From: Neocallimastix sp. 'constans'
Lineage: Eukaryota
Reading direction: 5' to 3'
DNA length: 64,000 nt
Assembly: GCA_050613775.1 (NCBI GenBank)
Contig: JBODTK010000153.1
Location: 1-64,000 of the forward strand
This document shows, piece after piece, positions 1 through 36,443 of this stretch. The number at the start of each line of letters is the position of its first letter. The stretch's first letter is position 1. Below the pieces are notes generated by a model that was not told the DNA's origin, did not search any database, and was given only the letters and a program-made list of their open reading frames with translations. Position numbers and translations under genes: made by a program.

Positions 1-88
1 AATAAATTTATAAATAAAAATAATAAATAAATAAATAAAATTTGTGTTTCCTTACTTTATTTTTATTTAATTCTCTAAAACCTTAACA
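1..88. mobile_element. Probable terminus (...CCTTAACA) of another LTR element inserted 17 bp inside the host chromovirus 3' LTR; the rest lies outside the window
   Basis: 89-105 equals the host LTR end at 18673-18689. The match stops abruptly at a ...AACA end (TGTTAAGG on minus), which resembles an LTR terminus. Confidence 0.55.
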
Positions 89-107
89 CTGAGGATTTCG
101 TTACATG

Positions 108-1048
108 TGTAAAATATTTAATAATTTGAATACGTATTTAAATGTAATGTAATGTAAATTATTGTGGATAAAAATGTTTTCCAAATTTTTAATATAAATT
201 TAAATGTATTCCAAATTATTAATTTAATTAATTTTCTCAAAAATGTATGACTAAATTATTTGGAGAATTTACATCATTATTACTCACTTTGAATCATGAA
301 ACTTGTAAATTAAAAATAATTAGTCATGAAACTTGTAAATTAAAAATAATTAGTCATAAATTAGTTAAATTAAAATAATCAAAGAAAAATTGCCTTTTCC
401 GTTTGTTTACAAAAACTTGCCGTTTTGTTTATTTATTTTTAGAAATATTAGATAGTTTTAAATAGTTTTTATATTAAAATAATTCATAACATTTCATGTA
501 ATTTATTATTAAATGTAATTACAAATATATAATAATATTTTAGTTAGTTTATTACAATCTATTCAATTTAAATTTTAATTTTCAAAAAGTATAAAAAGAG
601 TTAATTTTCAACTATTGAACGATAGTTGGAAAATAGTATAGAAAATAGTATAGTTTAGTTAGAAAATAGAATAGTATAGGAAATATTATAGATAAGATAG
701 ATAGTACAAATTTTATATTTTATTAATTAGTATTATAACTATTATTAGAATAGTTATCTTTTATAAAACAAATTTTATTTTAAATTTTATTTTAAAATCT
801 TAACTGCTAGTAGGCTTTCCGGTAAAGGACCCTACGGTACCCAGTTAAGTGATTGTTGATTTTAGAATAGTTAAATTCAACAAATAAGAAATATTAATAA
901 AAGGATTTTTTTTATAAAACAAAAAATTAAATTAGTTTTTTAGTTTTAGTGTTTTATTTAATAATTAATTATAGTGTTGATAAAATAAAATAGTGTAAAA
1001 TAAATTATAGTCTGTCCTCGCCGACTTAAGCTATTATTTTATTTTACA
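108..1048 (+). repeat. 5' LTR of copy 1
   Basis: Direct repeat of 5807-6747, TGTAAAAT...ATTTTACA. Confidence 0.97.
590..634 (+). promoter_or_regulatory. LTR TATA box (590-597) and predicted transcript 5' end / self-primer AGTTGGAAAAT (624-634)
   Basis: 624-634 is the exact reverse complement of the 11 nt after the LTR (1049-1059). TATAAAAA starts 34 nt upstream. Confidence 0.8.
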
Positions 1049-1059
1049 ATTTTCCAACT
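1049..1059 (+). promoter_or_regulatory. Self-priming PBS ATTTTCCAACT (copy 1; same sequence at 7705-7715 in copy 2)
   Basis: No TGG tRNA-type PBS; 11/11 complementarity to the LTR. Confidence 0.85.
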
Positions 1060-1204
1060 CGTTAGATTAGTATAGTTTACCTTTGTGTAGGATAGACTAG
1101 TAATAGTATAAAAATTTTTTTTTTTTTTTTGAAATAATAATTAAAAAGTGGATTTAGTAATACTTTATAGTTTAATTTATAGTTTAATAAATAATAATAA
1201 TAAG

Positions 1205-4200
1205 ATGAATTACATAAATATCAACAATCAACATCCAGGAGCTAGGGGAGACTTTGACGCAGCCTCTGAAGCCAGCTCCATGGAAATAGAAAATGAGGTT
1301 GGTAATAACGTCAATACCAGGGCACGCCTCATTCCGAAACCAAAAGCATTCTCCGGAAGAAGAAACGAACTACCAGCCTTCCTTGGTCAAATCAACCGAT
1401 ATTTTAAGTACAATTTAGACGAAGAAGCTGCTGCTGATGACGAATTCAAGATTGATATCATAAGTAGTTATTTGGAGGGAAACGCTGCTGAATGGTTTGC
1501 TGATCTAGTTAAAGAAGAAAGTCCACTATTGGAAAATTATGAGAATTTTATTGACGCTTTGCAACAACGTTACAAATCCTGTGCGAGTTCAGATGTCGCG
1601 AACAGTCGACTTACCAAGATACGTAGCCAACAATTTAGAACAATAGCCGAATACTGCAATCAGTTCGAGAAAATAGCCAGAGATTCATCATTTAATGACG
1701 AAGCTAAAATCCATTTTTTCATTGAGGGTTTACCAACAAGAGAAAAAGAAAGAACCAAACTAATTTATCCTAGAATTAGAAGAATTAATGAACTAATTAA
1801 TGTTGTAGCTGCTAATGCTGAAGAAGATCGTCGTGTTAACGGAAATGACCCAATGGATATAGATCAAAGAAGAATTAGACCTTTTCGTAGGGATTTAGGA
1901 TCAAGCCGTTACCAAAATAATTACCGAAGTAGCCAAAATTACAGGGATTCTTCACCAAAGAGGTCAAACAAACCGAAGAAGTGTTTTATATGTAAGAGCA
2001 CAAGCCACTTAAAGGAAAACTGTCCCAAGCAACAGGACAAAATTAGAAGAAGAGAAAAGATCTTACAGATTAAATTGAGCGAGAAAAGTTTAACTCACAC
2101 TTACAATGTTGTTTTTAAGTACAAAAATGGTTTTATTATGTCCGCAATTCTAGATACTGGCTCAGATCTTAATATTATGGATAGAGCTACCGCCGATAAA
2201 TACCAGATCCCAGTACAACGAATCCGCCATGAGAAAAACGTTATCGGATTTAACGGAAATGGAACAATTCGTTATGAAACCATTCCATTAACTATGGTCA
2301 TGGGTCAACATATCGAAACCATTCAATTTTACATTTATAGTTTACCAAAAGGAATTTCGGTTATTTTAGGAAATCCATGGTTGAAGAAGCATTGCCCAAC
2401 AATTGAATTTGATAAAGGTAATATCAGATTCAGTTCCCAATACTGCAAGAGAAATTGTTGTGCCACCGCTGAAGATATTATGAGAAGAACAACTGAAGAA
2501 AAGAAGAAAAAAGATGAAATCCGCCGAAGTAAGATACAATTAGCTAGAGAAATTATTAATAATTATAATAATGTATTAGATAGTTTAGATAATAATGATG
2601 TTAAAAAATTAGTCGATAATAAAAATAAATTATGTAGTAAAAAATCACGTAATATAAAGGCTATTATGAAAAAAGCCTTAGTTAAAAAAGAAAAATGTAT
2701 TAAAAGAAAAGAATTAAATAAAGGAAAATTTGAAAATTATGCTTTCTGTTATGTTTTAAAAAATGAAAATAAAGATAAAAGTGTTATTAAATGTGATTAT
2801 AATAATGAAAGTGTTAAAGAAAATAAAAGTTTGGAAAGAATACCAAAACAATATGAGAAATTCAAAAATGTGTTTGATGAACAAGAGTGTAACGAATTAC
2901 CACCACACCGTCCATACGACTGTAAAATTAGATTAAAGGATGATGTAGACTTATTTTATGGACCATTATATCCATTAACGGAAGAAGAACGTGAAGCTTT
3001 AAAAGAATATATCAAAGAAAATTTAGAAAAAGGCTTCATTAGACCTTCAACATCTCCTGCTGGTGCTCCAATTTTATTCGTTAGAAAAAAGGATGGAAGT
3101 TTAAGACTCTGTGTCGATTATCGAAGACTTAATGAAAATACTATAAGGGACTCCTATCCACTCCCTTTAATCACCGAGCTTTTTGACAGATTGAGAGAAG
3201 CTAAGTATTTTACTAAGTTAGATTTAAAATCAGCATATAATCTAGTAAGAATTCGTAAAGGAGATGAGTATAAAACCGCTTTCAGAACAAGATACGGTCA
3301 TTATGAATACCGAGTAATGCCCTTTGGATTAAAGAATGCACCTGCAACTTTCCAACACTTTATTAATGACGTTTTAGGAGAATACTTAGATGAATTTGCT
3401 TTTGCCTATATCGATGATATACTTATTTATTCTGAGACATTAGAAGAACACCGTACACATGTTAAGAAAATACTTAAGAAATTACAAGAAAGTGGTCTTT
3501 ATGCAAAATTAAGTAAGAGTGAATTTGAAGTCCAGAAAACAACATTCTTGGGGCACGTAATATCCAATCAAGGAATTTCCATGGATCCGGATAAAGTTAA
3601 GTCTATCTTAGAATGGCCAATACCAACTACAGTCAAAGAAGTACAATCATTTATAGGTTTATGCAACTACTACCGAAGATTCATCCCAAACTTTGCTAAA
3701 ATTGCTAAGCCGTTACACAACTTAACAAGAAAAGATGTTAAATATGAATGGACTGAAGAATGTTCTGTCGCATTCGAAACTTTAAAGAAACTCTTTACAA
3801 AAGAACCAATACTTGTTCATGCAGATCCAGAATTACTGTTTATAGTAGAGACAGATGCAAGTAATTTTGCAATTGGTGCCGTATTATCTCAAAGAAATAA
3901 GGATACAAATGAGTTACATCCAATTTGTTATTATTCAAGAGGTTTAACAAAATCTGAAAAGAATTATCCAATATATGACAAGGAATTATTAGCTGTCAAG
4001 TGTGCGTTACAAGAATGGAGACATTACTTAGAAGGGGCTAAGCATCAATTTACAATTTATACCGATCATAAAAATTTAACTTTTCCACGTAAACCTGAGT
4101 TGTTATCTCAACGTCAAATAAGATGGAACTTATTCTTATCTCGATTTGATTACAAAATACAATATAGACCAGGAAAAGAAGGTGGAAAACCAGATGCTTT

Positions 4201-5773
4201 TTCGAGAAGACCAGATTATGAAAATCAAGAAATAGATGATGAAAAAGAAACTTCAACTTGTCTTACAATACAAGAAGCTACAGAAGATTTATGTTTGGTT
4301 GCAATTCAAGGGAACTTAAAAGATGAATTGATAAAAGAAATTAAAGATGATGAAGTCATACAAGAATTAATCAAGATCAAAAAAGGAGAATCTACTTCTA
4401 ATAATAAATATAAAAATAAAATGAAAGACTTTACTATTGACGAAGAAGGTTTATTATTATATAAGGGTTTAATTTTCGTTCCAAAGAAGATGAGAAATAT
4501 TATCATTGCTATTCATCATGATAATCCAGTTCAAGGTCATTTTGGTATTCTCAAAACCAAAGAAATTATAAGTAGAAATTTTGTTTGGTTTAAGATGACT
4601 TCCGATATTGTTAAGTATATCGCATCATGCAAAACATGTGCTCAAGTAAAAGATGATCGCCACCGTCCTTATGGATTACTTCAACCTCTTCCTACTCCAA
4701 AAAGACCATGGTTCTCAGTCTCAATGGATTTTATAACTGATTTACCTAAGTCAAGAGACAAAACAGTTATAATGGTCGTAGTTGATAGATTAACAAAGAT
4801 GGCTCACTTTATTCCATTTAGAAGTATACCTACTGCTCAAATCGCTGCTGATGTATTTTTTAGAGAAGTTTTTCGTTTACACGGATTACCAGAAGATATT
4901 ACTTCCGATAGAGGATCTCAATTCACCTCCGAATTCTGGCAAAGACTTTGTAGTTTATTAGATATTCGTCAAAATTTGTCAACAGCACATCACCCTCAAA
5001 CAGATGGTCAAACTGAACGAGTTAATGGTATATTAGAACAATTTTTAAGGTGCTATATTAACAAAAGAAAAAATAACTGGATGGACATTCTTCCTTATGC
5101 TGAATTCGCATATAATAACACATTACAACAATCGACTAATCAGACACCATTCTTCTCAAATTATGGTTTTAATCCAAAATTCAATCCAGTTATACCTGCT
5201 GATAGCAGAAGAACAAGTACCATTGACCATGTTGAACAAATAAGGAAAAACATGCAATTCCTCAAGAAAAATTTAGAAAAAGCTAAGGAAAGATATAAGA
5301 GATATGCAGATCACTTAAGAATTGTAGGACCAAAATTAAAAGTAGGTGATAAAGTTTGGTTAAAGCGTCCAGATTTGCTTCCTAAAGGTCCAGCTAAGTT
5401 AACAAATAGAAAACTCGGTCCTTTTAAAATTATTGAAAAAACAGGCCCTGTTTCTTATAAATTAGAATTACCTGATACTATTAAATGCCATAATGTTTTC
5501 CATATTTCAAATCTAGAACCTTACAATGAAAGAGAATTTAATGAATCAAGTGCAAGTACTATTACTCGAATTACTTCGATCGCTACTGATACTGAAGGAA
5601 AGGAACCTTTGAAGATTGTTGCCGCTAAAGTTGTTAACAATAAACCTTTTTACTTTATGTTATGGAAAGGACTTCCAGCTACTGAATGTACTTGGTTGTC
5701 TGAAGATGAAATCACTGATCCTCAATTAGTTCAAGAGTTCAATAAAACAAATAGAGTTCCTTCTAGATTATAA
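1205..5773 (+). CDS. Gag-PR-RT-RNaseH-IN-chromodomain polyprotein
   Basis: CCHC knuckle CFICKSTSHLKENC, protease ILDTGS, RT YIDD, RNase H TDAS, integrase HHCC plus MDF/SDRG/TERVN, GPF motif, C-terminal chromodomain. First ATG is at 1205 (the ORF track begins at GTG 1148). Confidence 0.97.
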   Translation: MNYININNQHPGARGDFDAASEASSMEIENEVGNNVNTRARLIPKPKAFSGRRNELPAFLGQINRYFKYNLDEEAAADDEFKIDIISSYLEGNAAEWFADLVKEESPLLENYENFIDALQQRYKSCASSDVANSRLTKIRSQQFRTIAEYCNQFEKIARDSSFNDEAKIHFFIEGLPTREKERTKLIYPRIRRINELINVVAANAEEDRRVNGNDPMDIDQRRIRPFRRDLGSSRYQNNYRSSQNYRDSSPKRSNKPKKCFICKSTSHLKENCPKQQDKIRRREKILQIKLSEKSLTHTYNVVFKYKNGFIMSAILDTGSDLNIMDRATADKYQIPVQRIRHEKNVIGFNGNGTIRYETIPLTMVMGQHIETIQFYIYSLPKGISVILGNPWLKKHCPTIEFDKGNIRFSSQYCKRNCCATAEDIMRRTTEEKKKKDEIRRSKIQLAREIINNYNNVLDSLDNNDVKKLVDNKNKLCSKKSRNIKAIMKKALVKKEKCIKRKELNKGKFENYAFCYVLKNENKDKSVIKCDYNNESVKENKSLERIPKQYEKFKNVFDEQECNELPPHRPYDCKIRLKDDVDLFYGPLYPLTEEEREALKEYIKENLEKGFIRPSTSPAGAPILFVRKKDGSLRLCVDYRRLNENTIRDSYPLPLITELFDRLREAKYFTKLDLKSAYNLVRIRKGDEYKTAFRTRYGHYEYRVMPFGLKNAPATFQHFINDVLGEYLDEFAFAYIDDILIYSETLEEHRTHVKKILKKLQESGLYAKLSKSEFEVQKTTFLGHVISNQGISMDPDKVKSILEWPIPTTVKEVQSFIGLCNYYRRFIPNFAKIAKPLHNLTRKDVKYEWTEECSVAFETLKKLFTKEPILVHADPELLFIVETDASNFAIGAVLSQRNKDTNELHPICYYSRGLTKSEKNYPIYDKELLAVKCALQEWRHYLEGAKHQFTIYTDHKNLTFPRKPELLSQRQIRWNLFLSRFDYKIQYRPGKEGGKPDAFSRRPDYENQEIDDEKETSTCLTIQEATEDLCLVAIQGNLKDELIKEIKDDEVIQELIKIKKGESTSNNKYKNKMKDFTIDEEGLLLYKGLIFVPKKMRNIIIAIHHDNPVQGHFGILKTKEIISRNFVWFKMTSDIVKYIASCKTCAQVKDDRHRPYGLLQPLPTPKRPWFSVSMDFITDLPKSRDKTVIMVVVDRLTKMAHFIPFRSIPTAQIAADVFFREVFRLHGLPEDITSDRGSQFTSEFWQRLCSLLDIRQNLSTAHHPQTDGQTERVNGILEQFLRCYINKRKNNWMDILPYAEFAYNNTLQQSTNQTPFFSNYGFNPKFNPVIPADSRRTSTIDHVEQIRKNMQFLKKNLEKAKERYKRYADHLRIVGPKLKVGDKVWLKRPDLLPKGPAKLTNRKLGPFKIIEKTGPVSYKLELPDTIKCHNVFHISNLEPYNEREFNESSASTITRITSIATDTEGKEPLKIVAAKVVNNKPFYFMLWKGLPATECTWLSEDEITDPQLVQEFNKTNRVPSRL

Positions 5774-5806
5774 GTCGCTCAGGGGCTCGACTTAAACAGA
5801 GGGGCA

Positions 5807-6747
5807 TGTAAAATATTTAATAATTTGAATACGTATTTAAATGTAATGTAATGTAAATTATTGTGGATAAAAATGTTTTCCAAATTTTTAATATAAATTT
5901 AAATGTATTCCAAATTATTAATTTAATTAATTTTCTCAAAAATGTATGACTAAATTATTTGGAGAATTTACATCATTATTACTCACTTTGAATCATGAAA
6001 CTTGTAAATTAAAAATAATTAGTCATGAAACTTGTAAATTAAAAATAATTAGTCATAAATTAGTTAAATTAAAATAATCAAAGAAAAATTGCCTTTTCCG
6101 TTTGTTTACAAAAACTTGCCGTTTTGTTTATTTATTTTTAGAAATATTAGATAGTTTTAAATAGTTTTTATATTAAAATAATTCATAACATTTCATGTAA
6201 TTTATTATTAAATGTAATTACAAATATATAATAATATTTTAGTTAGTTTATTACAATCTATTCAATTTAAATTTTAATTTTCAAAAAGTATAAAAAGAGT
6301 TAATTTTCAACTATTGAACGATAGTTGGAAAATAGTATAGAAAATAGTATAGTTTAGTTAGAAAATAGAATAGTATAGGAAATATTATAGATAAGATAGA
6401 TAGTACAAATTTTATATTTTATTAATTAGTATTATAACTATTATTAGAATAGTTATCTTTTATAAAACAAATTTTATTTTAAATTTTATTTTAAAATCTT
6501 AACTGCTAGTAGGCTTTCCGGTAAAGGACCCTACGGTACCCAGTTAAGTGATTGTTGATTTTAGAATAGTTAAATTCAACAAATAAGAAATATTAATAAA
6601 AGGATTTTTTTTATAAAACAAAAAATTAAATTAGTTTTTTAGTTTTAGTGTTTTATTTAATAATTAATTATAGTGTTGATAAAATAAAATAGTGTAAAAT
6701 AAATTATAGTCTGTCCTCGCCGACTTAAGCTATTATTTTATTTTACA
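5807..6747 (+). repeat. 3' LTR of copy 1
   Basis: No differences from 108-1048 seen by eye. Confidence 0.97.
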
Positions 6748-6752
6748 ACATG

Positions 6753-7704
6753 TGTAAAATATTTGTAAAATATTTAATAATTTGAATACGTATTTAAATG
6801 TAATGTAATGTAAATTATTGTGGATAAAAATGTTTTCCAAATTTTTAATATAAATTTAAATGTATTCCAAATTATTAATTTAATTAATTTTCTCTAAAAT
6901 GTATGACTAAATTATTTGGAGAATTTACATCATTATTACTCACTTTGAATCATGGAACTTTGTAAATTAAAAATAATTAGTCATGAAACTTGTAAATTAA
7001 AAATAATTAGTCATAAATTAGTTAAATTAAAATAATCAAAGAAAAATTGCCTTTTCCGTTTGTTTACAAAAACTTGCCGTTTTGTTTATTTATTTTTAGA
7101 AATATTAGATAGTTTTAAATAGTTTTTATATTAAAATAACTCATAAAAATTCATGTAATTTATTATTAAATGTAATTACAAATATATAATAATATTTTAG
7201 TTAGTTTATTACAATCTATTCAATTTAAATTTTAATTTTCAAAAAGTATAAAATGAGTTAATTTTCAACTATTGAACGATAGTTGGAAAATAGTATAGAA
7301 AATAGTATAGTTTAGTTAGAAAATAGAATAGTATAGGAAATATTATAGATAAGATAGATAGTACAAATTTTATATTTTATTAATTAGTATTATAACTATT
7401 ATTAGAATAGTTATCTTTTATAAAACAAATTTTATTTTAAATTTTATTTTAAAATCTTAACTGCTAGTAGGCTTTCCGGTAAAGGACCCTACGGTACCCA
7501 GTTAAGTGATTGTTGATTTTAGAATAGTTAAATTCAACAAATAAGAAATATTAATAAAAGGATTTTTTTATAAAACAAAAAATTAAATTAGTTTTTTAGT
7601 TTTAGTGTTTTAGTTAATAATTAATTATAGTGTTGATATAATAAAATAGTGTAAAATAAATTATAGTCTGTCCTCGCCGACCTAAGCTATTATTTTATTT
7701 TACA
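6753..7704 (+). repeat. 5' LTR of copy 2
   Basis: Direct repeat of 12459-13410. Confidence 0.97.
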
Positions 7705-7856
7705 ATTTTCCAACTCGTTAGATTAGTATAACTTACCTTTGCGTAGGATAGACTAGTAATAATATAAGAATTTTTTTATTTTGAAATAATAATTAAAAAG
7801 TGGAATTAGTAATACTTTATAGTTTAATTTATAGTTTAATAAATAATAATAATAAA

Positions 7857-10800
7857 ATGAATTACATAAATATCAACAATCAACATCCAGGAGCTAGGGG
7901 AGACTTTGACGCAGCCTCTGAAGCCAGCTCCATGGAAATAGAAAATGAGGTTGGTAATAACGTCAATACCAGGGCACGCCTCATTCCGAAACCAAAAGCA
8001 TTCTCCGGAAGAAGAAACGAACTACCAGCTTTCCTTGGTCAAATCAACCGATATTTTAAGTACAATTTAGACGAAGAAGCTGCCGCTGATGACGAATTCA
8101 AGATTGATATTATAAGTAGTTATTTGGAAGGAAACGCTGCTGAATGGTTTGCTGATCTAGTTAAAGAAGAAAGTCCACTATTGGAAAACTACGAAAACTT
8201 TATTGACGCTTTGCAGCAACGTTACAAATCCTGTGCGAGTTCAGATGTCGCGAACAGTCAACTTACCAAGACACGTAGCCAACAATTTAGAACAATAGCC
8301 GAATACTGCAATCAGTTCGAGAAAATAGCCAGAGATTCATCATTTAATGACGAAGCTAAAATCCATTTTTTCATCGAGGGTTTACCAACAAGAGAAAAAG
8401 AAAGAACCAAACTAATTTATCCTAGAATTAGAAGAATTAATGAACTAATTAATGTTGTAGCTGCTAATGCTGAAGAAGATCGTCGTTTTAACGGAAATGA
8501 CCCAATGGATATAGATCAAAGAAGAATTAGACCTTTTCGTAGGGATTTAGGATCAAGTCGTTACCAAAATAATTATCGAAGTAGCCAAAATTACAGGGAT
8601 TCTTCACCAAAGAGATCAAACAAACCGAAGAAGTATTTTATATGTAAGAGCACAAGACATTTAAAGGAAAACTGTCCCAAGCAACAGGACAAAATTAGAA
8701 GAAGAGAAAGGGTCTTACAGATTAAATTGAGTGAGAAAAGTTTAGCTCACACTTACAAAGTTGTTTTTAAGTACAAAAATGGTTTTATTATGCCCGCAAT
8801 TCTAGATACTGGTTCAGATCTTAATATTATGGATAGAGCTACCGCCGATAAATACCAGATCCCAATGCAACGAATCCGCCATGAGAAAAACATTATCGGA
8901 TTTAATGGAAATGGAACAATTCGTTATGAAACCATTCCATTAACTATGGTCATGGGTCAACACACCGAAACCATTCAATTTTACATTTACAGTTTACCAA
9001 AAGGAATTTCGGTTATTTTAGGAAATCCATGGTTGAAGAAGCATTGCCCAACAATTGAATTTGATAAAGGTAATATCAGATTCAGTTCCCAATACTGCAA
9101 GAGAAATTGTTGTGCCACCGCTGAAGATATTATGAGAAGAACAACTGAAGAAAAGAAGAAAAAAGATGAAATCCGCCGAAGTAAGATACAATTAGTTAGA
9201 GAAATTATTAATAATTATAATGATGTATTAGATAGTTTAGATAATAATGATGTTAAAAAATTAGTCGATAATAAAAATAAATTATGTAGTAAAAAATCAC
9301 GTAATATAAAGGCTATTATGAAAAAAGCTTTAGTTAAAAAAGAAAAATGTATTAAAAGAAAAGAATTAAATAAAGGAAAATTTGAAAATTATGCTTTCTG
9401 TTATGTTTTAAAAAATGAAAATAAAGATAAAAGTGTTATTAAATGTGATTATAATAATGAAAGTGTTAAAGAAAATAAAAGTTTGGAAAGAATACCAAAA
9501 CAATATGAGAAATTTAAAAATGTGTTTGATGAACAAGAGTGTAACGAATTACCACCACATCGTCCATACGACTGTAAAATTAGATTAAAGGATGATGTAG
9601 ACTTATTTTATGGACCATTATATCCATTAACGGAAGAAGAACGTGAAGCTTTAAAAGAATATATCAAAGAAAATTTAGAAAAAGGCTTCATTAGACCTTC
9701 AACATCTCCTGCTGGTGCTCCAATTCTATTCGTTAGAAAAAAGGATGGAAGTTTAAGACTTTGTGTCGATTATCGAAGACTTAATGAAAATACTATAAGG
9801 GATTCCTATCCACTCCCTTTAATCACCGAGCTTTTTGACAGATTGAGAGAAGCTAAGTATTTTACTAAGTTAGATTTAAAATCAGCTTATAACCTGGTAA
9901 GAATACGTGAAGGTGATGAATATAAAACAGCATTTCGAACAAGATATGGTCATTTCGAATATCTTGTTATGCCATTTGGTTTGAAGAATGCTCCAGCAAC
10001 TTTCCAACACTTTATTAATGACGTTTTAGGAGAATACTTAGATGAATTTGCTTTTGCCTATATCGATGATATACTTATTTATTCTGAGACATTAGAAGAA
10101 CACCGTACACATGTTAAGAAAATACTTAAGAAATTACAAGAAAGTGGTCTTTATGCAAAATTAAGTAAGAGTGAATTTGAAGTCCAGAAAACAACATTCT
10201 TGGGGCACGTAATATCCAATCAAGGAATTTCCATGGATCCGGATAAAGTTAAGTCTATCTTAGAATGGCCAATACCAACTACAGTCAAAGAAGTACAATC
10301 ATTTATAGGTTTATGCAACTACTACCGAAGATTCATCCCAAACTTTGCTAAAATTGCTAAGCCGTTACACAACTTGACAAGAAAAGATGTTAAATATGAA
10401 TGGACTGAAGAATGTTCTGTCGCATTCGATACTTTAAAGAAACTCTTTACAAAAGAACCAATACTTGTTCATGCAGATCCAGAATTACCGTTTATAGTAG
10501 AGACAGATGCAAGTAATTTTGCAATCGGTGCTGTGTTATCTCAAAGACAAAAATATACAAACGCATTACATCCAATTTGTTATTATTCAAGAGGTTTAAC
10601 AAAATCTGAAAAGAATTATCCAATATATGACAAAGAATTATTAGCTGTCAAGTGTGCGTTACAAGAATGGAGACATTACTTAGAAGGGGCTAAGCATCAA
10701 TTTACAATTTATACCGATCATAAAAATTTAACTTTTCCACGTAAACCTGAGTTGTTATCTCAACGTCAAATAAGATGGAACTTATTCTTATCTCGATTTG

Positions 10801-12425
10801 ATTACAAAATACAATATAGACCAGGAAAAGAAGGTGGAAAATCAGATGCTTTTTCGAGAAGACCAGATTATGAAAATCAAGAAATAGATGATGAAAAAGA
10901 AACTTCAGCTTGTCTTACAATACAAGAAGCTACAGAAGATTTATGTTTAGTTGCAATTCAAGGGAACTTAAAAGATGAATTGATAAAAGAAATTAAAGAT
11001 GATGAAGTCATACAAGAATTAATCAAGATCAAAAAAGGAGAATCTACTTCTAATAATAAATATAAAAATAAAATGAAAGACTTTACTATTGACGAAGAAG
11101 GTTTATTATTATATAAGGGTTTAATTTTCGTTCCAAAGAAGATGAGAAATATTATCATTGCTATTCATCATGATAATCCAGTTCAAGGTCATTTTGGTAT
11201 TCTCAAAACCAAAGAAATTATAAGTAGAAATTTTGTTTGGTTTAAGATGACTTCCGATATTGTTAAGTATATCGCATCATGCAAAACATGTGCTCGAGTA
11301 AAAGATGATCGCCACCGTCCTTATGGATTACTTCAACCTCTTCCTACTCCAAAAAGACCATGGTCCTCAGTTTCAATGGATTTTATAACTGATTTACCTA
11401 AGTCAAGAGACAAAACAGTTATAATGGTCGTAGTTGATAGATTAACAAAGATGGCTCACTTTATTCCATTTAGGAGTATACCTACTACTCAAATCGCTGC
11501 TGATGTATTTTTTAGAGAAGTTTTTCGTTTACACGGATTACCAGAAGATATTACTTCCGATAGAGGATCTCAATTCACCTCCGAATTCTGGCAAAGACTT
11601 TGTAGTTTATTAGATATTCGTCAAAATTTGTCAACAGCACATCACCCTCAAACAGATGGTCAAACTGAACGAGTTAATGGTATATTAGAACAATTTTTAA
11701 GGTGCTATATTAACAAAAGAAAAAATAACTGGATGGACATTCTTCCTTATGCTGAATTCGCATATAATAACACATTACAACAATCGACTAATCAGACACC
11801 ATTCTTCTCAAATTATGGTTTTAATCCAAAATTCAATCCAGTTATACCTGCTGATAGCAGAAGAACAAGTACCATTGACCATGTTGAACAAATAAGGAAA
11901 AACATGCAATTCCTCAAGAAAAATTTAGAAAAAGCTAAGGAAAGATATAAGAGATATGCAGATCACTTAAGAATTGTAGGACCAAAATTAAAAGTAGGTG
12001 ATAAAGTTTGGTTAAAGCGTCCAGACTTACTTCCAAAAGGTCCTTCTAAATTGACTAACAGAAAACTCGGTCCTTTTAAAATTATTGAAAAAACAGGCCC
12101 TGTTTCTTATAAATTAGAATTACCTGATACTATTAAATGCCATAATGTTTTCCATATTTCAAATCTAGAACCTTACAATGAAAGAGAATTTGATGAATCA
12201 AGTACAAGTACTATTACTCGAATTACTTCGATCGCTACTGATACTGAAGGAAAGGAACCTTTGAAGATTGTTGCCGCTAAAGTTGTTAATAATAAACCTT
12301 TTTACTTTATGTTATGGAAAGGACTTCCAGCTACTGAATGTACTTGGTTGTCTGAAGATGAAATCACTGATCCTCAATTAGTTCAAGAGTTCAATAAAAC
12401 AAATAGAGTTCCTTCTAGATTATAA
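7857..12425 (+). CDS. Gag-Pol polyprotein, copy 2 (first Cys of the zinc knuckle replaced by Tyr)
   Basis: Same motifs as copy 1; the knuckle reads YFICKSTRHLKENC. Confidence 0.97.
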   Translation: MNYININNQHPGARGDFDAASEASSMEIENEVGNNVNTRARLIPKPKAFSGRRNELPAFLGQINRYFKYNLDEEAAADDEFKIDIISSYLEGNAAEWFADLVKEESPLLENYENFIDALQQRYKSCASSDVANSQLTKTRSQQFRTIAEYCNQFEKIARDSSFNDEAKIHFFIEGLPTREKERTKLIYPRIRRINELINVVAANAEEDRRFNGNDPMDIDQRRIRPFRRDLGSSRYQNNYRSSQNYRDSSPKRSNKPKKYFICKSTRHLKENCPKQQDKIRRRERVLQIKLSEKSLAHTYKVVFKYKNGFIMPAILDTGSDLNIMDRATADKYQIPMQRIRHEKNIIGFNGNGTIRYETIPLTMVMGQHTETIQFYIYSLPKGISVILGNPWLKKHCPTIEFDKGNIRFSSQYCKRNCCATAEDIMRRTTEEKKKKDEIRRSKIQLVREIINNYNDVLDSLDNNDVKKLVDNKNKLCSKKSRNIKAIMKKALVKKEKCIKRKELNKGKFENYAFCYVLKNENKDKSVIKCDYNNESVKENKSLERIPKQYEKFKNVFDEQECNELPPHRPYDCKIRLKDDVDLFYGPLYPLTEEEREALKEYIKENLEKGFIRPSTSPAGAPILFVRKKDGSLRLCVDYRRLNENTIRDSYPLPLITELFDRLREAKYFTKLDLKSAYNLVRIREGDEYKTAFRTRYGHFEYLVMPFGLKNAPATFQHFINDVLGEYLDEFAFAYIDDILIYSETLEEHRTHVKKILKKLQESGLYAKLSKSEFEVQKTTFLGHVISNQGISMDPDKVKSILEWPIPTTVKEVQSFIGLCNYYRRFIPNFAKIAKPLHNLTRKDVKYEWTEECSVAFDTLKKLFTKEPILVHADPELPFIVETDASNFAIGAVLSQRQKYTNALHPICYYSRGLTKSEKNYPIYDKELLAVKCALQEWRHYLEGAKHQFTIYTDHKNLTFPRKPELLSQRQIRWNLFLSRFDYKIQYRPGKEGGKSDAFSRRPDYENQEIDDEKETSACLTIQEATEDLCLVAIQGNLKDELIKEIKDDEVIQELIKIKKGESTSNNKYKNKMKDFTIDEEGLLLYKGLIFVPKKMRNIIIAIHHDNPVQGHFGILKTKEIISRNFVWFKMTSDIVKYIASCKTCARVKDDRHRPYGLLQPLPTPKRPWSSVSMDFITDLPKSRDKTVIMVVVDRLTKMAHFIPFRSIPTTQIAADVFFREVFRLHGLPEDITSDRGSQFTSEFWQRLCSLLDIRQNLSTAHHPQTDGQTERVNGILEQFLRCYINKRKNNWMDILPYAEFAYNNTLQQSTNQTPFFSNYGFNPKFNPVIPADSRRTSTIDHVEQIRKNMQFLKKNLEKAKERYKRYADHLRIVGPKLKVGDKVWLKRPDLLPKGPSKLTNRKLGPFKIIEKTGPVSYKLELPDTIKCHNVFHISNLEPYNEREFDESSTSTITRITSIATDTEGKEPLKIVAAKVVNNKPFYFMLWKGLPATECTWLSEDEITDPQLVQEFNKTNRVPSRL

Positions 12426-12458
12426 GTCGCTCAGGGGCTCGACTTAAACAGAGGGGCA

Positions 12459-13410
12459 TGTAAAATATTTGTAAAATATTTAATAATTTGAATACGTATT
12501 TAAATGTAATGTAATGTAAATTATTGTGGATAAAAATGTTTTCCAAATTTTTAATATAAATTTAAATGTATTCCAAATTATTAATTTAATTAATTTTCTC
12601 TAAAATGTATGACTAAATTATTTGGAGAATTTACATCATTATTACTCACTTTGAATCATGGAACTTTGTAAATTAAAAATAATTAGTCATGAAACTTGTA
12701 AATTAAAAATAATTAGTCATAAATTAGTTAAATTAAAATAATCAAAGAAAAATTGCCTTTTCCGTTTGTTTACAAAAACTTGCCGTTTTGTTTATTTATT
12801 TTTAGAAATATTAGATAGTTTTAAATAGTTTTTATATTAAAATAACTCATAAAAATTCATGTAATTTATTATTAAATGTAATTACAAATATATAATAATA
12901 TTTTAGTTAGTTTATTACAATCTATTCAATTTAAATTTTAATTTTCAAAAAGTATAAAATGAGTTAATTTTCAACTATTGAACGATAGTTGGAAAATAGT
13001 ATAGAAAATAGTATAGTTTAGTTAGAAAATAGAATAGTATAGGAAATATTATAGATAAGATAGATAGTACAAATTTTATATTTTATTAATTAGTATTATA
13101 ACTATTATTAGAATAGTTATCTTTTATAAAACAAATTTTATTTTAAATTTTATTTTAAAATCTTAACTGCTAGTAGGCTTTCCGGTAAAGGACCCTACGG
13201 TACCCAGTTAAGTGATTGTTGATTTTAGAATAGTTAAATTCAACAAATAAGAAATATTAATAAAAGGATTTTTTTATAAAACAAAAAATTAAATTAGTTT
13301 TTTAGTTTTAGTGTTTTAGTTAATAATTAATTATAGTGTTGATATAATAAAATAGTGTAAAATAAATTATAGTCTGTCCTCGCCGACCTAAGCTATTATT
13401 TTATTTTACA
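12459..13410 (+). repeat. 3' LTR of copy 2
   Basis: Shares the copy-2-specific variants with 6753-7704. Confidence 0.97.
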
Positions 13411-13740
13411 ACATGGTCCGCCTCCAGGATTCGGATACCAGACGAATCTAACAGTTAGGCATAACTATACTAAAATTAAGCAAACTAAACTAAACTAAAC
13501 TAAATTAAAATAAAATAAAATATAATAAAATAAAAATAATTAATTAACCATTTTATAGTACGAACTTTTTTGAATAAAATTACATGATATTAATAAAGTT
13601 ACATGAATATAATATATAATAAGAATACATGAATATTAATAATATTTAATAATATAAAATAATATTTAGTAATATTGATATTAATAAATTAATATAAGTT
13701 TGATATTAATAAAGTAAAGATTCATTTTCAAGTTTTAATT

Positions 13741-16182
13741 TTAGTTATTTTTGTTAAATTCTTTTAAGAGTTTAGGGCAATTTAAATTTTCTTCGGGTTC
13801 CCAAGATGCTTCAGATAAAGGATAGCCTTTCCATTTAATAAGATATTGGGTTTTGCCATAATGTTTTCTTTTATCAAGAATTTTTTCAACTTCGTATTCT
13901 TCTTCATTGTCAATAATTATCGGTGGTGGTGGTTCTTTCTTTCGTCCAAAGTGATCTTCATAAAATGGTTCAAGTTCAGAAACATGTATTACAGGATGGA
14001 TTCTGATTTCTTTTGGTAAGTCTAACTTATATGAAACGGGAGAAATTTTCTTAATGATTTTATATGGACCAAGTTTTCTGGGTTTAAGTTTTTTATTTCC
14101 ATTATGAATTATAAGTGAACTATTAATCCACACTTTATCACCAGGTTCAAAATTTGGAGCTTCAATACGATGTTTGTTTGCGAATTCTTCTTGCTTTTTT
14201 CTTGCTTGTTGTAAATTTCCATTAAGTGTTTTGAATAATTCTGAAAGGTCTTTTGTAAATTCATCAGCTCTAGGAACATCTGTACTGTTTGGAATTGATG
14301 GTGAATATCTTGGATTATATCCATAGTTTGCATAAAAAGGTGAGTGCTTAATTGATTCTTGAATTGAATTATTATAACTGAATTCTGCTAGGAATAAAAA
14401 ATTATACCAGTCAGAACCTTTAAAGTTTGAATAACATCTTAAGTATTGTTCAATAACGGAGTTCACCCTCTCCGTTAAACCATTGGTTTGGTGATGGAAG
14501 GGAGAAGCAAGTTTCGTTGTGATATTGAAAGATTTACAAATAGCTGACCAAAATTTTGAAGTGAATTGAGAACCTTTATCAGAAAAAAAATCGGAGGGTG
14601 GTTTATGAATAATACGAAAGAGATCATTTAGGTCTTTCTTGGGAACAAATGAAACAGAAGCAGCAGCTGGAGATATAGATTTACTAATAAATTTTTTGTC
14701 TTCATTTTCTTTAATATATTTCTTCGAAGCTAGAGATTCTTTTTCAGTTAAGGGGTAGATTGGATCATAATGAAGTTTTTCATTTTGTTTGGGTTTAATC
14801 TCGCTATCAAAAGGACAATAAGGAGGTGATTCATTAGTGTATATTTCACTGAAAGTGTCTATAAATGGAAGTAATTTTTTTGGTAATGATTTGCTTATTT
14901 TATTATTGATTTCTTCATTTTCATTTTTGTCATTTTGTTTAGTAGTATTTAAAGGAACATAAGAAGTAAAGGAGTTAGGGATGATTAAACAATTTTCAAC
15001 GCAATAATTGGAATTAAATCTTAAGACTTTATTTTTGAAGTCAATATCAGGATTGTGAGTAGAAATCCATTCGAAACCTAAAATAGCACAATAAGAAGGA
15101 AGGTCAACCACATAGAATTGAGTTTTACATTTGTGATTTTTATAAGTGATGGAAATAGGAAGAGTTTTTCCAAGAATAGTTTGCTTTCCACCGATGCCAG
15201 ATACCTTAGGGAAATTAGTTTTGGTTGAATACGGGATATTATTTTCTTTAATATAGTAGATATCCATTAAATTGATTTGAGAACCAGTATCGAGAAGAAT
15301 TTTAGCGGTAGAATTTGTATTATCAATACTTAAAGAAAATTCGTAAATAGGAAGATTTGAGTCAGAAACTCTAGGTCTAGAAATAGGTTTTGATTCGGGA
15401 TTAGAAACATAAGTGCTACTTGATGAAGGTTTATTTTTGTATTTATTTTTAAGTGGACAATTGTCGAGAGAATGTTCAGAGGATCCACAATATAAACAAA
15501 GATTTTCTCTTCTTCTTCTTTCTTTTTCTTCTTGAGATAGAGGTCCATGAGGTTTGGATTTAAATTGCTTTTGGAAAAAGAATGATTTTTTGCCCTTTTT
15601 ATTTTTATTATTATTACTATTATTTGAATTTTGACCATGAAGATTGGAAAATTGTCTATGAGTAGAAATACGATTATCGATTCGAGATGCAATTGTTTGC
15701 ATAGCAAAGAGGGTTTGAGGTCCAGGAAACATTTCTAAAATTCTAGTAGCAATATGGTCATGTAGACCGACAAGAAAGGCGTCCATCTTGGCTTCTTCAT
15801 TCCAAGAAGATTCATCGGCGTATTTATTAAATTCTAAAATATAATTTCTGACTTCACCAATTCGTTTTTGTTTGATTGTTCTTAATTTCTGGTTGGCAAT
15901 AAAGGTAGAGTCGTAGCTTCCAAATACTGATTTTAATCTAGCAATGAATTGATTATAATTAAGGAGACAAGGATCTTGGTTTTCAATAAGGGTAGCAGCC
16001 CAATTCATGGCGTTTCCATACAAACGAGAAATGATATAGATTACTTTAGCTTCATCGTTTGCAAATCTTTCCGGTTGAATCATAAAAATAAGTTCCATTT
16101 TAGCTAGAAATCCTTTAAAGAATCGACGATCACCAGCAAAACCGTCCTTAAAGGTAGGATTTTCTTGGTTATAGTTGTCCAT
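13741..16182 (-). CDS. Gag-protease-(RT/RNaseH deleted)-partial integrase-chromodomain ORF
   Basis: [21 protein letters not shown], degenerate RT start ending FVPKKD fused in frame to integrase ([12 protein letters not shown]), GPY, canonical chromodomain YEVEKIL...WKGY. Confidence 0.93.
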
Positions 16183-17571: not shown

Positions 17572-18044
17572 GTTAAGGTAATGTAAGTTTTATCTTAATA
17601 GGGTAGTACAAGTTTAATTTGAATTATATGATCGGGTAGTACAAGAATTTTTGTTATAAAAATTAATTTCAACAACCATAGGATTAGGATTATCCGGTAA
17701 TATAATAGATACAAAGGATTGAATTATATAATAGTGAGGGTAACTCAAAACAGACAAGGTGATAATTTGAATAGGAATCAATAGGCAGTAATTATTCGTC
17801 TGGGAGGAGATAGAATCCGAGATTAAAAGATATAGAAGTCCGGTATTAAAGAGATAGTAGATAAAAAGATTTATTCAAAGATTATTAGATTAAGATAGAG
17901 AGAACCGGAAGAGTAGGTATTAGTAAAAGTAGAAACCCAACGATTGCCAAAAGATATTAAGAAAGTAGAATTCCTAAAAGTGCGGTAGAATGTCTGCGGG
18001 ATAGCGCAAAGGTATTGAGGGCTTGGATTAGCAGGTGCTTTTAT

Positions 18045-18689
18045 TGTAACGGAGGTGCTTCTATTGTAACGGCGGGACGGGGTATAGAAACACACAAAAG
18101 AAGAAAACTCAATAGGTTTACACTATCTGTATAAATAATTCGTTTTATTAGAAATATTTTTTATTAATTATAAAATTTAAAATAATTATTAATATTAATC
18201 AACAAGGTAATATTTCGAATTACTTATACGTTAATTATTATTAATAAAAGCACGAAGAAAAATATTTTCATTCGTGAAGTTCGCACTATTTATACTTTTA
18301 ACGGAAAAACAGTTTTAACATGTAAAAATAATTTTAAAGAAATATTTAGAAATATGTTTGTAATAATTAATAATGTAAAGTTTCTAGAATATAGATTTTA
18401 ATTGATGAAAATGAATCTTATCAAAAAAGAATAAAATAATTTATATAATAAGAATTTCTAAATTCATTTCGGTTGAATTACGAACCGAAAGAATCTTTAA
18501 CTTTCTATAATTTTATACAGAAAGAATATTCAAGAAGATATTATTAATAATTAATAAAATAATTAATAAAATAATTATTTATGCAAAATGGGTTGAGGTG
18601 TGAGTCGAACCCATGAAGTATTGGTCATGGTCAATGTAACTAACCATTGAACCAAAGTTCTAATTTTACTAACTGAGGATTTCGTTACA
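18045..18689 (-). repeat. 5' LTR of host chromovirus (645 bp)
   Basis: 7-bp terminal inverted repeats TGTAACG/CGTTACA; TATAAATA at 18294-18287; self-primer 18253-18244; first 17 nt recur at 105-89. Confidence 0.85.
18585..18661 (-). promoter_or_regulatory. tRNA-like Pol III internal promoter (A-box and B-box) within the LTR
   Basis: A-box TGGTTCAATGG (18654-18644), B-box GGTTCGACTCA (18611-18601), tRNA-like spacing, T4 run just downstream. The cloverleaf is degenerate. Confidence 0.6.
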
Positions 18690-19735
18690 GTATTATTATT
18701 AGTTATTGTTTGATTAGTTGGTGGTTGTGAATCCTCAAAAATTTCAATAGATTCATTGAAAGTAACATTTTTATGATCTTTATTTTCTTTAAATTCTTTA
18801 CCTTCTTCTTTTTCTGTTGATAGTTTGACATTCGTTCCTCCCTCATCTATTATCATATCAGGTGTTCCTGTAGTTGCTAATTTATTAACGTTTAATTTTC
18901 TTTTCATAATAGTATTTTTCTTCATAGCATTTGTAATAATTGGAACTGGATTATCTATAAGCTTTTTCTTTATTTCTTTGGTATATGGGGAGATTTTTAT
19001 TGAATTATTTTTACCTTTCTTTTGGGCAACAGCGATAATTTCCTCATTATGGTAATTATCAAAATTATTATAAACATTATTTGAATTAGGTTCATTATTA
19101 ATTTTCTTTTCATTATCATTTATAGAAATTCTATTTAAATCAATTTCATTGTTACTTTGATCATCATTATTATTTTTATAAGTATTATTTATATTAACAT
19201 CATTGTTAACTTGTTTATTAATAGTGTCATTTTCATAGATGTTGTTATGATTACTATTATTTAATTTATAACCGTTACTAGTATTCTTACTAAGATATTC
19301 TATATTATTTAAGTTATTATTATTATTATTATTGGAATAAATATTATCAATACTTGTATGATTATCATCAAATAAACTGTTTGTATAATTTATTTTATTA
19401 TTCTTATTTAAATAATTATTGTTTATATCATAATTATGTGAATTATCATTATAAGGATATCCATTATTTATTACATCATTATTTGAAGTTGCACTAGCAT
19501 TATATGAATTATTATTATTATTATTATTATTATGTAAGTTATTATTATTATTATTATTATGTAAATTATTATCATTAGTATTATTATAATTATTTTTTGT
19601 TTTCATAGTATTATTATTTAACTTGGGAGAGTATGTTAAATTTACATATTCTTCATTAATACTATTATTTTTATTATAAGTTTGGAGTTTGGTTTGGTTA
19701 ACGGGAGTTGTCCTTCTCCCATTATTTAGTTTAAA
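18690..19735 (-). CDS. ORF2 (presumed pol N-terminus, Asn-rich) reached by -1 frameshift; truncated by the host-element insertion
   Basis: The -1 frame is open from the slippery site into ORF 19606-18575. The last ~37 aa of that ORF are read-through into the inserted LTR. Confidence 0.7.
19703..19735 (-). promoter_or_regulatory. -1 programmed ribosomal frameshift signal
   Basis: T TTA AAC in frame just before the gag stop, 8-nt spacer, GGGAG-AAGGACAA-CTCCC hairpin. Confidence 0.85.
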
Positions 19736-21030
19736 TTATTAAAGCTATCTCCATTATTATTATTATTATTTACATTAGCTTTGAAATTACTATTAATATT
19801 TGAACTAGTAGTATTAATATCCTGATTTATTCCATTAGAATTTCTATTAAAATTATTATTTCCAGTGGGAATATTATTCTCATTAAAATTATTATTATTT
19901 CTATTAGCAATATTATTTCCAGTAAATTTATTATTTTTATTAAAGTAATAATTACTACCATTAAAAGAATTATTGTAGCCATTTTTATTACTATTATTAT
20001 AATAATTGTTATATTTATTACTATTATTATTATAATCAAAATTATTATTATAATTATTACCCATATCATTATTATTCATATTATAAAGATTATTATTTCT
20101 ATTACTACCATTATTTTTATTATTAGGACATTCATAAGCTTTATGTCCTACTTGTTTACATGAGTAACACATAACTGATTTTCTAGCTTTTGGTTCGTAG
20201 TTATTATAGAATCTTCTTGTATCATAAGTATTATTTTGTTGAATTTGTTCTACTCCGTGATAATAATTATTATTATTATTAAAACTTTTATTTTTATTGT
20301 TACTATATCTACCTGGTGTAAACATTCTATTATTGGTGGAGTTTTCATTTATATAACCCATAACATATGATGACGCTTGATATGAATTATCTAAATTATT
20401 TCCATGTTCTCTTAAGCTCTTATAAATTGGATGATTTAATAAATTGTTATTATTTTTATTTATGTTGTTTTGATATACCATAACATTCTGAGAATTTTTG
20501 TTTGTTATAGTTCGTACTTCAGCTTTTTCTGCACGTTCTGCTACTTCGAACGCTTCTGTTAATGTTTTACAGTTGGCCAAAATTACTTGAGAATGTACAT
20601 ATACCCTATCATGTATAGCATTTAAATAATCATCGACACATATTAATTTTTTATATTCCAAGTCAAGTCGATGATAAAGAGTTAAATAATTATAATTAAA
20701 TCCTTTAATTGTTTCATTTCTTTTTATTTTTAAGGCCTTTAAAATTGAACACTTATCATTTTGAGTAATTTCTAAATAATCTTCAATGGCTCTCTGGATT
20801 TCTTTATATGAGGGAAACCTTTTAACATTATTTCTTGTAGTACATAAAGATTTTAAAAGGTTTTTTATGTCAGCCTCTACTGCGTTCTTTACCCAAATAA
20901 AAATTCTGTTTGGTTCCTCAATGTTGTAAATTTCCATAACATTTTTGAAATCTTCTATCCAAGAATCTATGTCCTTACCATAATTTGCTAAGTATGGTAA
21001 GTCTCTTCTAATTTTCGAAGCGTCCGCCAT
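19726..21030 (-). CDS. Gag with CCHC zinc knuckle and Asn-rich tail
   Basis: CYSCKQVGHKAYEC; capsid-like N-terminal half; lies downstream of the PBS. Confidence 0.85.
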   Translation of the reverse strand: MADASKIRRDLPYLANYGKDIDSWIEDFKNVMEIYNIEEPNRIFIWVKNAVEADIKNLLKSLCTTRNNVKRFPSYKEIQRAIEDYLEITQNDKCSILKALKIKRNETIKGFNYNYLTLYHRLDLEYKKLICVDDYLNAIHDRVYVHSQVILANCKTLTEAFEVAERAEKAEVRTITNKNSQNVMVYQNNINKNNNNLLNHPIYKSLREHGNNLDNSYQASSYVMGYINENSTNNRMFTPGRYSNNKNKSFNNNNNYYHGVEQIQQNNTYDTRRFYNNYEPKARKSVMCYSCKQVGHKAYECPNNKNNGSNRNNNLYNMNNNDMGNNYNNNFDYNNNSNKYNNYYNNSNKNGYNNSFNGSNYYFNKNNKFTGNNIANRNNNNFNENNIPTGNNNFNRNSNGINQDINTTSSNINSNFKANVNNNNNNGDSFNNLN

Positions 21031-21116
21031 TTATCTAATTATTATTTTAATTTGAAATTATATTCTTATATACTTTTACGAGTATAATAATATTATTTTT
21101 ATTATTGTTATTATTA

Positions 21117-21169
<53 letters not shown>

Positions 21170-21797
21170 TCTTATTTTATATACTATTACTAAAATATTA
21201 CTATTATTAAAATATTATTTATTATTATTAATTATTAATTCACTATTACTAAAATATTATTTATTATTATTAATTATTACTTAATTCACTATTACTAAAA
21301 TATCATTTAATTATTATTATTATTATTATTAATTCTTATTTTATACACTATTACTAAAATATTACTATTACTAAAATATTATTTATTATTATTAATTATT
21401 ACTTAATTCACTATTACTAAAATATCATTTATTATTATTAATTATTACTTAATTCACCATTACTAAAATATTATTTATTATTATTATTAAAATATTATCT
21501 ATTATTTTTTTTTTTTCCTAAATATTATCACATATACTATTAATAAAATATTATTTAATATTAATTTTTATACTAAACTATTACTACTTTTTATTATAAT
21601 ATCATTTCTTAATTAAAGGTTTATTCGTTTTTATACTGGTCCGAATTCCCAGTTGTCTTTAATTACTAATAAAGATGATAATAAAAAAAAATTAACTATA
21701 CTAATAATAATAATTAAAGACTTATTCGTTTTTATTCTGGTTCGAACTCCCAGTTACCTTTAATTATTATTTAATAATAATCATAATAATTTTAGGC

Positions 21798-21849
<52 letters not shown>

Positions 21850-21977
21850 TTTATATATTACTATTATAAAAAAATTAATTATTTAATTTTAATTTAATAT
21901 TAATTATTTAATTGTCTTTATTTTTTAAAAAGTAAATATCAATATAAATATAAATTTCATAATATTCTTGGTTTGCA

Positions 21978-21995
21978 CGCCCGGATTCTCCACCA
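21978..21995 (-). promoter_or_regulatory. PBS complementary to the tRNA-Ala 3' end
   Basis: Plus strand reads CGCCCGGATTCTCCACCA, similar to eukaryotic tRNA-Ala ...ATTCTCCA-CCA. Confidence 0.8.
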
Positions 21996-21999
21996 TTTT

Positions 22000-22619
22000 T
22001 GATACGATATTTTATTAAATACCGTATATGTTAGTTGGGAGTTTGTGCAAAAGGGAATTACTCCAAGAATATTATATTACAATAATTATATTTACTTTTT
22101 ATTTATTTATCTTTTATTATTTTATTTATTATATTTTATCATAAAAAAAATACATGTTTTATTATTATTCCTTAAAAAAAAAAAAAGAAAATATTTATTT
22201 ATAAATTATTTTCATAATTATATTTTTTTACTAATTTTATAAATTTTATTTATCGAAACACTAAAATTAATTAATAAATATAAATATTCATAACTTTTTA
22301 CTTATAACTATTAATTCATATTGTTTAACATTATTTAAAAATTATTTTAATATTAACATCAATTTAATTAAACATTCAATCTCCGTTATAATTAATATAA
22401 CTAATTTTACTATATTATCAACAATTCTTTTAATATTTTTAATATTATTATTTAATTTAATATTTTAATAATTAATAATAATAAATTATCTTTAATAATA
22501 TATTAATAATATATTTTAAGATTCATTATATAAAATTAATTTTTAATAAATATTTATATTAATAATTTTTCTAAATAATTTTTCTATTATTTTCTATTAT
22601 TTTTACTGGACATGCATCA
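22000..22619 (-). repeat. Candidate 5' LTR of the outer element
   Basis: TGAT/ATCA termini, 4 nt from the PBS. The far boundary is inferred because no partner LTR is visible. Confidence 0.6.

Positions 22620-33826: not shown

Positions 33827-33827
<1 letters not shown>

Positions 33828-36354: not shown

Positions 36355-36443
<89 letters not shown>

Follow-up and report, generated by a model that had tools for sequence, protein, structure and literature searches.

Evidence for independent insertions of one chromovirus at a single nucleotide of another chromovirus family in Neocallimastix sp. 'constans'

The window analysed here, a stretch of 64,000 nucleotides from Neocallimastix sp. 'constans' (assembly GCA_050613775.1, contig JBODTK010000153.1, positions 1 to 64,000 of the forward strand), contains two copies, E1 and E2, of a Ty3/gypsy long terminal repeat (LTR) retrotransposon of the chromovirus type (family E) that occupy one and the same 5-base target, being arranged head to tail as ACATG-E1-ACATG-E2-ACATG with four whole LTRs. 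The target lies in a further element, H, which to judge from its sequence is a non-autonomous chromovirus of a lineage different from E, and the ACATG target site duplication (TSD) spans the border between the polypurine tract (PPT) and the 3′ LTR of H, taking in the two bases that precede the LTR together with its first three. Contigs from one sequencing run, X4, carry an additional junction at this border which represents insertion at the same cut but in reverse orientation, and by this recurrence the E tandem is more than a one-off. It is in our estimate an even question whether E has evolved single-nucleotide, either-orientation integration into the PPT/3′-LTR border of a rival family, a site-specific parasitism of retrotransposon on retrotransposon in which the border would serve as a renewable safe haven and each copy hit would be sterilised. 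Double insertion and nucleotide-precise Ty3/gypsy targeting are already known; the PPT/LTR border of another LTR family as the target is unprecedented in the literature searched.

On the plus strand of the window the TSD copies are located at 103..107, 6748..6752 and 13411..13415, the second consisting of the sole bases that separate the whole elements E1 (108..6747) and E2 (6753..13410). E1 possesses a 5′ LTR at 108..1048, with a 9-bp terminal inverted repeat, and an identical 3′ LTR at 5807..6747, both of 941 bp, while the two LTRs of E2 (6753..7704 and 12459..13410) are likewise identical to each other, are 952 bp long and carry an 11-base terminal duplication. Comparison of the E1-type and E2-type LTRs established nine substitutions, two 1-base indels and the 11-base duplication, which is positioned at the very start of the LTR; all of these differences (12/12) are common to both members of a pair and none is private to a single LTR, and separate reverse transcription of E1 and E2 is therefore needed. 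The internal regions are 97.7% identical, and the chance that a 5-base spacer equals the outer TSD is approximately 5e-4 (26 occurrences in 50,585 bases). A tandem with a shared LTR has a single LTR between the internal regions and no inner TSD, neither of which applies to E1 and E2. Two features expected of a double-insertion dimer were found, namely a TSD that separates the copies and also flanks the pair at either end, and copies distinguishable as separate transposition products, and E1 and E2 very probably represent an independent double insertion as such. A preliminary description, made from the letters alone, had reported the three ACATG copies, the four complete LTRs and their matched pairs of 941 and 952 bp, and had argued that this was not a shared-LTR tandem; sequence comparison confirms the structure, and the retained inner TSD, the four LTRs and the pair-specific differences bear out the argument.

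The target reads GGAC-CATGT-AACG on the minus strand and is not symmetric about the TSD. The H PPT (13414..13425, minus strand) can be aligned to the PPT regions of E and four relatives, and the start of the H 3′ LTR (1..105, minus strand), which runs off the window, is recognised by 18 bases (88-105) that match the H 5′ LTR before the two diverge, an 18-mer match for which 2.5e-7 chance copies are expected. H is a multi-copy element, as empty H-family sites with another LTR variant exist in two X4 contigs and X4 depth runs into the thousands over the PPT region of H (3,600+ as compared to 152 at the junction).

Part of the junction region is present in 20 of the 24 sequencing runs listed; contigs of four runs were examined, those of X4 twice, and 24 of 212 loose-end matches in the four-run comparison and 6 of 33 in the X4 repeat form the basis of what follows. 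X4 may be the sample of origin of the window, and its support for the junctions consists of k-mer contigs rather than spanning long reads. All three ACATG junctions are present in X4 contigs, and a contig of 97 bases (6696-6792, depth 152) runs across the middle one without mismatches, with 52 letters on one side and 40 on the other, thereby rendering a collapsed haplotype unlikely; the preliminary description had named such a collapse as the outcome that would overturn it, and the bridging contig, though not a long read, weighs against it. In addition, eight letters of the PPT side of H are joined in X4 to the start of a type-1 LTR (loose end before 6763), and on the other side the PPT side of H plus the TSD are followed directly by the LTR start in reverse complement (12 letters before 13402, two contigs). 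This CATGT junction between LTR start and H PPT side is absent from the window sequence, and we infer that recombination between LTRs cannot convert an LTR-end junction into an LTR-start junction. The opposite-orientation insertion probably sits in two H variants. For the right junction, a k=31 graph model made from slices of the window gives 25 loose letters if only empty H sites are supplied; adding the opposite insertion, with no parameter fitted, brings the number to 16, as observed. When an H variant is then fitted at ten bases from the LTR, the model reproduces the 9, the 21 and the two contigs that were observed, and with a second fitted flank variant it yields the observed 12 at the left junction. 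Among the six X4 matches listed in the four-run comparison three lie at LTR ends, all three being the H-junction site, and no LTR-terminal loose end was present among the six matches listed for each of runs X1 and X3.

At least three independent insertions (E1, E2 and one in the opposite orientation) are recorded at one nucleotide of H, and likely four or five if the variants are separate H loci and not alleles. The ratio of E internal depth to junction depth is 9.7, which as a rough count corresponds to roughly ten full-length copies. Chance models with 12 settings (assumed genome of 50-200 Mb, 30-100 sites and 12-50 insertions) gave a probability of two further hits at H below 1e-8 in every setting when insertion was random, and of 1.5e-4 to 0.027 at the assumed copy numbers when the choice was among CATGTAA sites only. 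As a sufficient target CATGTAA was rejected, this 7-mer being too common (10 copies in 50.5 kb outside the elements) and the probabilities being those just given; cores of 9-10 bases occur 0-1 times in the same 50.5 kb. The match between CATGTAA and the PPT-LTR junction of E itself, to which the preliminary description had drawn attention, stands as a contiguous 7-base core common to both, but is not supported as an account of the target, in view of its abundance and of the absence of E self-insertion among the matches listed for X4 and the other runs. The broader proposal of that description, two recent and independent integrations of nucleotide precision at the PPT/3′-LTR junction of another chromovirus, is supported and is strengthened by the opposite-orientation junction in X4.

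Several observations weigh against a family-wide targeting of H. All evidence for recurrence derives from a single run, X4, in which the opposite-orientation contigs are given without depth; a reference that bears the TSD favours contigs carrying the TSD, so that the X4 matches give no family share; two parameters of the graph model were obtained by fitting; and the two flank variants may represent alleles at a single locus. Furthermore, in run X12, which comes from another organism, the flanks of the LTR start are unrelated to the site in 2/2 of the matches listed. Random flanks at other copies had been named beforehand as grounds for abandoning the idea of targeting, and the two X12 flanks listed bear this out in part. 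The X12 flank before 6763 ends, 12 bases from the LTR, in a stretch with an apparent likeness to the 3′ terminus of a tRNA gene and seven T's after it. If this likeness is genuine, regions downstream of tRNA genes may be a further target of E, as they are of Skipper-2. The preference of the E family for the H site is probably not exclusive. Within the window there are no tRNA genes, and the site itself, to the left of which only 102 bases are available, has no Rfam match.

We favour, with slightly more than even confidence, a mechanism in which two distinct rounds of retrotransposition each led the E integrase to cut the same pair of bonds, its position probably being set by a tether, that is, a protein bound beside the H PPT/LTR border. 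The clean 5-base TSDs together with the intact integrases argue for integrase-mediated events, and the pairing of the LTR types for separate reverse transcriptions. Integrase-independent insertion through PPT homology, of the type described in PMC11042837, was rejected on account of the clean 5-base TSD at the junctions. The first E insertion would duplicate the site and leave the context of one flank intact, and the second would reuse the retained site, as in P element double insertion; other H copies would be struck likewise in either orientation, amounting to at least three and likely four to five events. Once the first insertion has occurred, each junction retains just half of the original context, and it is because the same bonds were cut again with half the context, and because the cut is the same in both orientations of an asymmetric site, that a tether was judged likeliest. 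The candidate is a putative protein at a fixed distance on one side of the border, which would set the position of the cut and, being one-sided, would allow a second hit with half the context. Each hit parts the H PPT from the H 3′ LTR, and an occupied H would consequently not be expected to be copied onward, each locus then being its own event. A role for the group II chromodomain of E in targeting is conceivable, albeit speculative.

The alternatives rank below a tether in the order in which they are discussed here. Direct readout of DNA by the E integrase, either through a half-site of more than 7 bases or through the shape of a G-rich/AT-rich PPT-LTR border that resembles its own LTR end, is possible though clearly less probable. 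It would account for the 7 contiguous bases common to the target and the junction of E itself, and the scarcity of 9-10 base cores indicates that a modestly longer motif would be rare enough; it sits poorly, however, with an identical cut in both orientations of an asymmetric site, with a second hit that had only half the context, with the lack of self-insertion among the matches listed and with X12 flanks that have nothing in common with the site. Rather more doubtful is that the locus is simply a local hotspot, the H LTR border being open chromatin for many elements and the repeats at one nucleotide resulting from local DNA bending, with no preference on the part of the E family. The locus is a nest, as H lies inside another gag element and the H 3′ LTR diverges after 18 bases at TG, possibly owing to another insertion, while nested plant LTR elements favour 3′ untranslated regions (PMC6911290) and the unrelated X12 flanks are also in keeping with a hotspot. 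A hotspot is nevertheless difficult to reconcile with a single base having received three or more insertions when full-length copies number roughly ten, a figure taken from the rough depth ratio, and the preferences in the plant study are regional, with the lowest rates in LTRs (PMC6911290).

A single insertion that underwent tandem duplication via the 5-base TSD, with one copy replaced by cDNA recombination and the opposite junction generated by inversion between the 9-base terminal repeats, appears improbable. Although cDNA often recombines with elements already resident in yeast genomes (PMC5371812, PMC11042837), and although the differences between E1 and E2 do fall in mosaic blocks, such routes yield tandems that share one LTR, the 11-base difference at the LTR end beside the TSD leaves at most 11 bases of homology for conversion, three rare microhomology events would be required, and the opposite junction is borne by two contigs. 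We give the least credence to an assembly artefact in which two haplotypes with different insertions collapsed to a false tandem: contigs in place of spanning long reads, and a run that may be the window's own sample, speak in its favour, whereas the bridging contig, with its depth and the letters it holds on both sides of the junction, speaks against it, and even if it were true two insertions at one base would still stand.

Dimers of transposable elements formed by double insertion have been described for the P element, jockey and R1 (McGurk and Barbash, 10.1101/158386 = PMC5932611), and these resemble E1/E2 as head-to-tail pairs with a TSD in the junction, distinguishable copies and preferred sites; in that study, however, the TSD evidence concerns DNA transposons and non-LTR elements and LTR tandems are ascribed to shared-LTR recombination, whereas E keeps four LTRs. 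The rice IDENTAM arrangement (PMC11899658) and the integrase-independent tandems of Tf1/Tf2 (PMC11042837) likewise comprise adjacent full-length Ty3/gypsy elements within one outer TSD, but have three LTRs and no inner TSD, as opposed to the four LTRs and inner TSD of E1/E2, the junctions of which are not seamless at PPT homology. Positioning of a Ty3/gypsy integrase within a few bases by a tether is known for Ty3 (through TFIIIB), Tj1 and DGLT-A, and DGLT-A inserts in either orientation, as E does at H, while Tj1 is self-priming, as E is predicted to be (PMC5911963, PMC4600332); their target is the start of Pol III genes, while the E window is without a tRNA gene and the site without an Rfam match. 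Tf1 of S. pombe is a self-priming element, as is predicted for E, with a host DNA-binding tether, Sap1, that also binds LTRs (PMC5371812, PMC7175516), though it goes to Pol II promoters at many sites. In dictyostelids, which also have group I relatives of it, the chromovirus Skipper-2 combines a chromodomain of group II with a position-specific target that has changed (PMC5006619), but that target is a window downstream of tRNA genes and not one base in another LTR family. Literature searching, the coverage of which did not extend to subscription papers or bioRxiv supplements, retrieved neither an LTR element targeted to the PPT/LTR border of another family nor an LTR dimer with a TSD between its members, and absence is thus unproven.

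Precise targeting by LTR integrases is known from a small number of tethers that act at host genes (Pol III starts, Sap1 sites). The primary study of Tf1 and Sap1 is said to have found targeting to the single nucleotide. If the reading proposed for E is true, a target inside the replication signal of another retrotransposon would constitute a new kind of target, with one LTR family disabling another, and would provide a lead on the role of group II chromodomains. The E1/E2 tandem also shows that LTR elements are able to form TSD-separated dimers with four LTRs. Genetic tools for anaerobic gut fungi are scarce, and an intact, recently active and site-preferring integrase would be useful in these organisms.

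E1 and E2 each encode a single intact gag-pol open reading frame (ORF) of 1522 amino acids (1205..5773 and 7857..12425, respectively, plus strand), with that of E1 specifying Gag, protease (PR), reverse transcriptase (RT), RNase H, integrase (IN), an SH3-like domain and a chromodomain; the Pfam order Gag-PR-RT-RNase H-IN between LTRs is that of a chromovirus, and YIDD and D,D(35)E motifs are discernible in the translation. The primer-binding site (PBS) of E1 (1049..1059, plus strand) has 11 bases complementary to position 517 of its own LTR (window 624-634), and its PPT occupies 5794..5806. Complementarity of the PBS to the element's own LTR is a trait of Tf1-type self-priming (PMC4600332), in which the PBS should pair with the LTR region where the transcript starts and carry no TGG; from the 11 complementary bases in E and 10 in H both are predicted to be self-priming. 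The chromodomain at the C-terminus of the E integrase (5612..5746 in E1; PF00385, E 1.1e-7, with matches to the HP1 family) has K/W/L at the aromatic cage positions as compared to Y/W/Y in H. Group II chromodomains have lost the first and usually the third aromatic cage residue (PMC5006619), and by that definition the E chromodomain is, as judged by alignment, of group II. The cage is altered in all of the 16 closest E relatives checked, 15 of which lack the first aromatic residue while P0001 keeps the first and has the other two changed; it is retained in H, where it is canonical, and in nine relatives. A quick tree, built from the C-terminal half of IN with 118 of 123 rows kept and comprising search hits only, without named reference chromoviruses, assigns E and H to different branches (SH-aLRT 96 for the E branch and 99 for the H branch).

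Between E1 and E2 93 codons differ (62 synonymous and 31 nonsynonymous), and the differences are clustered in blocks (variance 33.7 versus mean 5.4 per 250 bases), which suggests recombinant subfamilies. Dense and mostly silent blocks lie at 3235-3343, 3874-3913 and 5374-5407, and X4 contigs carry both versions as two alleles. The E relatives L002-L006, found by protein search, are short contigs without usable flanks; L003-L006 (60-69% identity) lie inside prokaryotic metagenome-assembled genomes and are likely fungal contamination. A metagenome scan for the LTR end returned one locus, with a 5′ LTR followed by a PBS and no flank, the H junction had no matches in viral and prokaryote-genome collections, and a protein search of viral contigs found no H relatives. 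Six RNA runs contain 37-48% of the words.

H is encoded on the minus strand, where an ORF of 813 amino acids (13741..16182) specifies Gag, protease, the start of RT, the C-terminal half of IN and a group I chromodomain. Most of RT, RNase H and the N-terminus of IN, which correspond to residues 631-1204 of E, are missing from it; the reading frame stays open across this large deletion. Its PBS (18035..18044) adjoins a 5′ LTR of 645 bp (18045..18689) with a 7-bp terminal inverted repeat, the sole LTR candidate between 16182 and 18700, which ends in a 20-base near-duplication, and the 5′ untranslated region extends over approximately 1.9 kb. The divergence of the 3′ from the 5′ LTR begins where the minus strand reads TG (window 1-87), a segment without a match in the H 5′ region, and possibly reflects either the nesting of a third element at 17 bases inside the LTR or an LTR of a different subtype. 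The plus strand at 13414-13433 starts with TGG after an LTR-like CA and was considered as a tRNA primer-binding site, a reading judged less likely because the H ORF, 5′ LTR and self-priming PBS lie on the minus strand, the PPT alignment covers the region and there is no Rfam match. The minus strand of the same segment has an apparent resemblance to a tRNA 3′ end with CCA, and is a possible decoy for a tRNA-targeting element, or a coincidence.

H is itself inserted in another minus-strand element (window 18575-22000), giving three levels of nesting; the latter contains a gag-like zinc-knuckle ORF of 434 amino acids (19726-21030), an overlapping Asn-rich ORF cut by the H 5′ LTR and, at 21995, a PBS-like stretch beginning with TGG. 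Elsewhere in the window, a 7tm_3 ORF beside an ORF with Chlam_PMP repeats (24746-26814, minus strand) likely represents exons of a large gene resembling those for G protein-coupled receptors, and a short copia-type element at 33827-36358 has 207-bp LTRs that are 99% identical, a gag ORF (34163-35164) and flanking TTA repeats. Pex19, Prp18 and LisH/WD40 genes are located at 48-63 kb, and the Prp18 protein, in keeping with an anaerobic gut fungus (Neocallimastigomycota) as the host, is 97% identical to a protein of Orpsp1, 91% to that of Anaeromyces and 90% to that of Piromyces.

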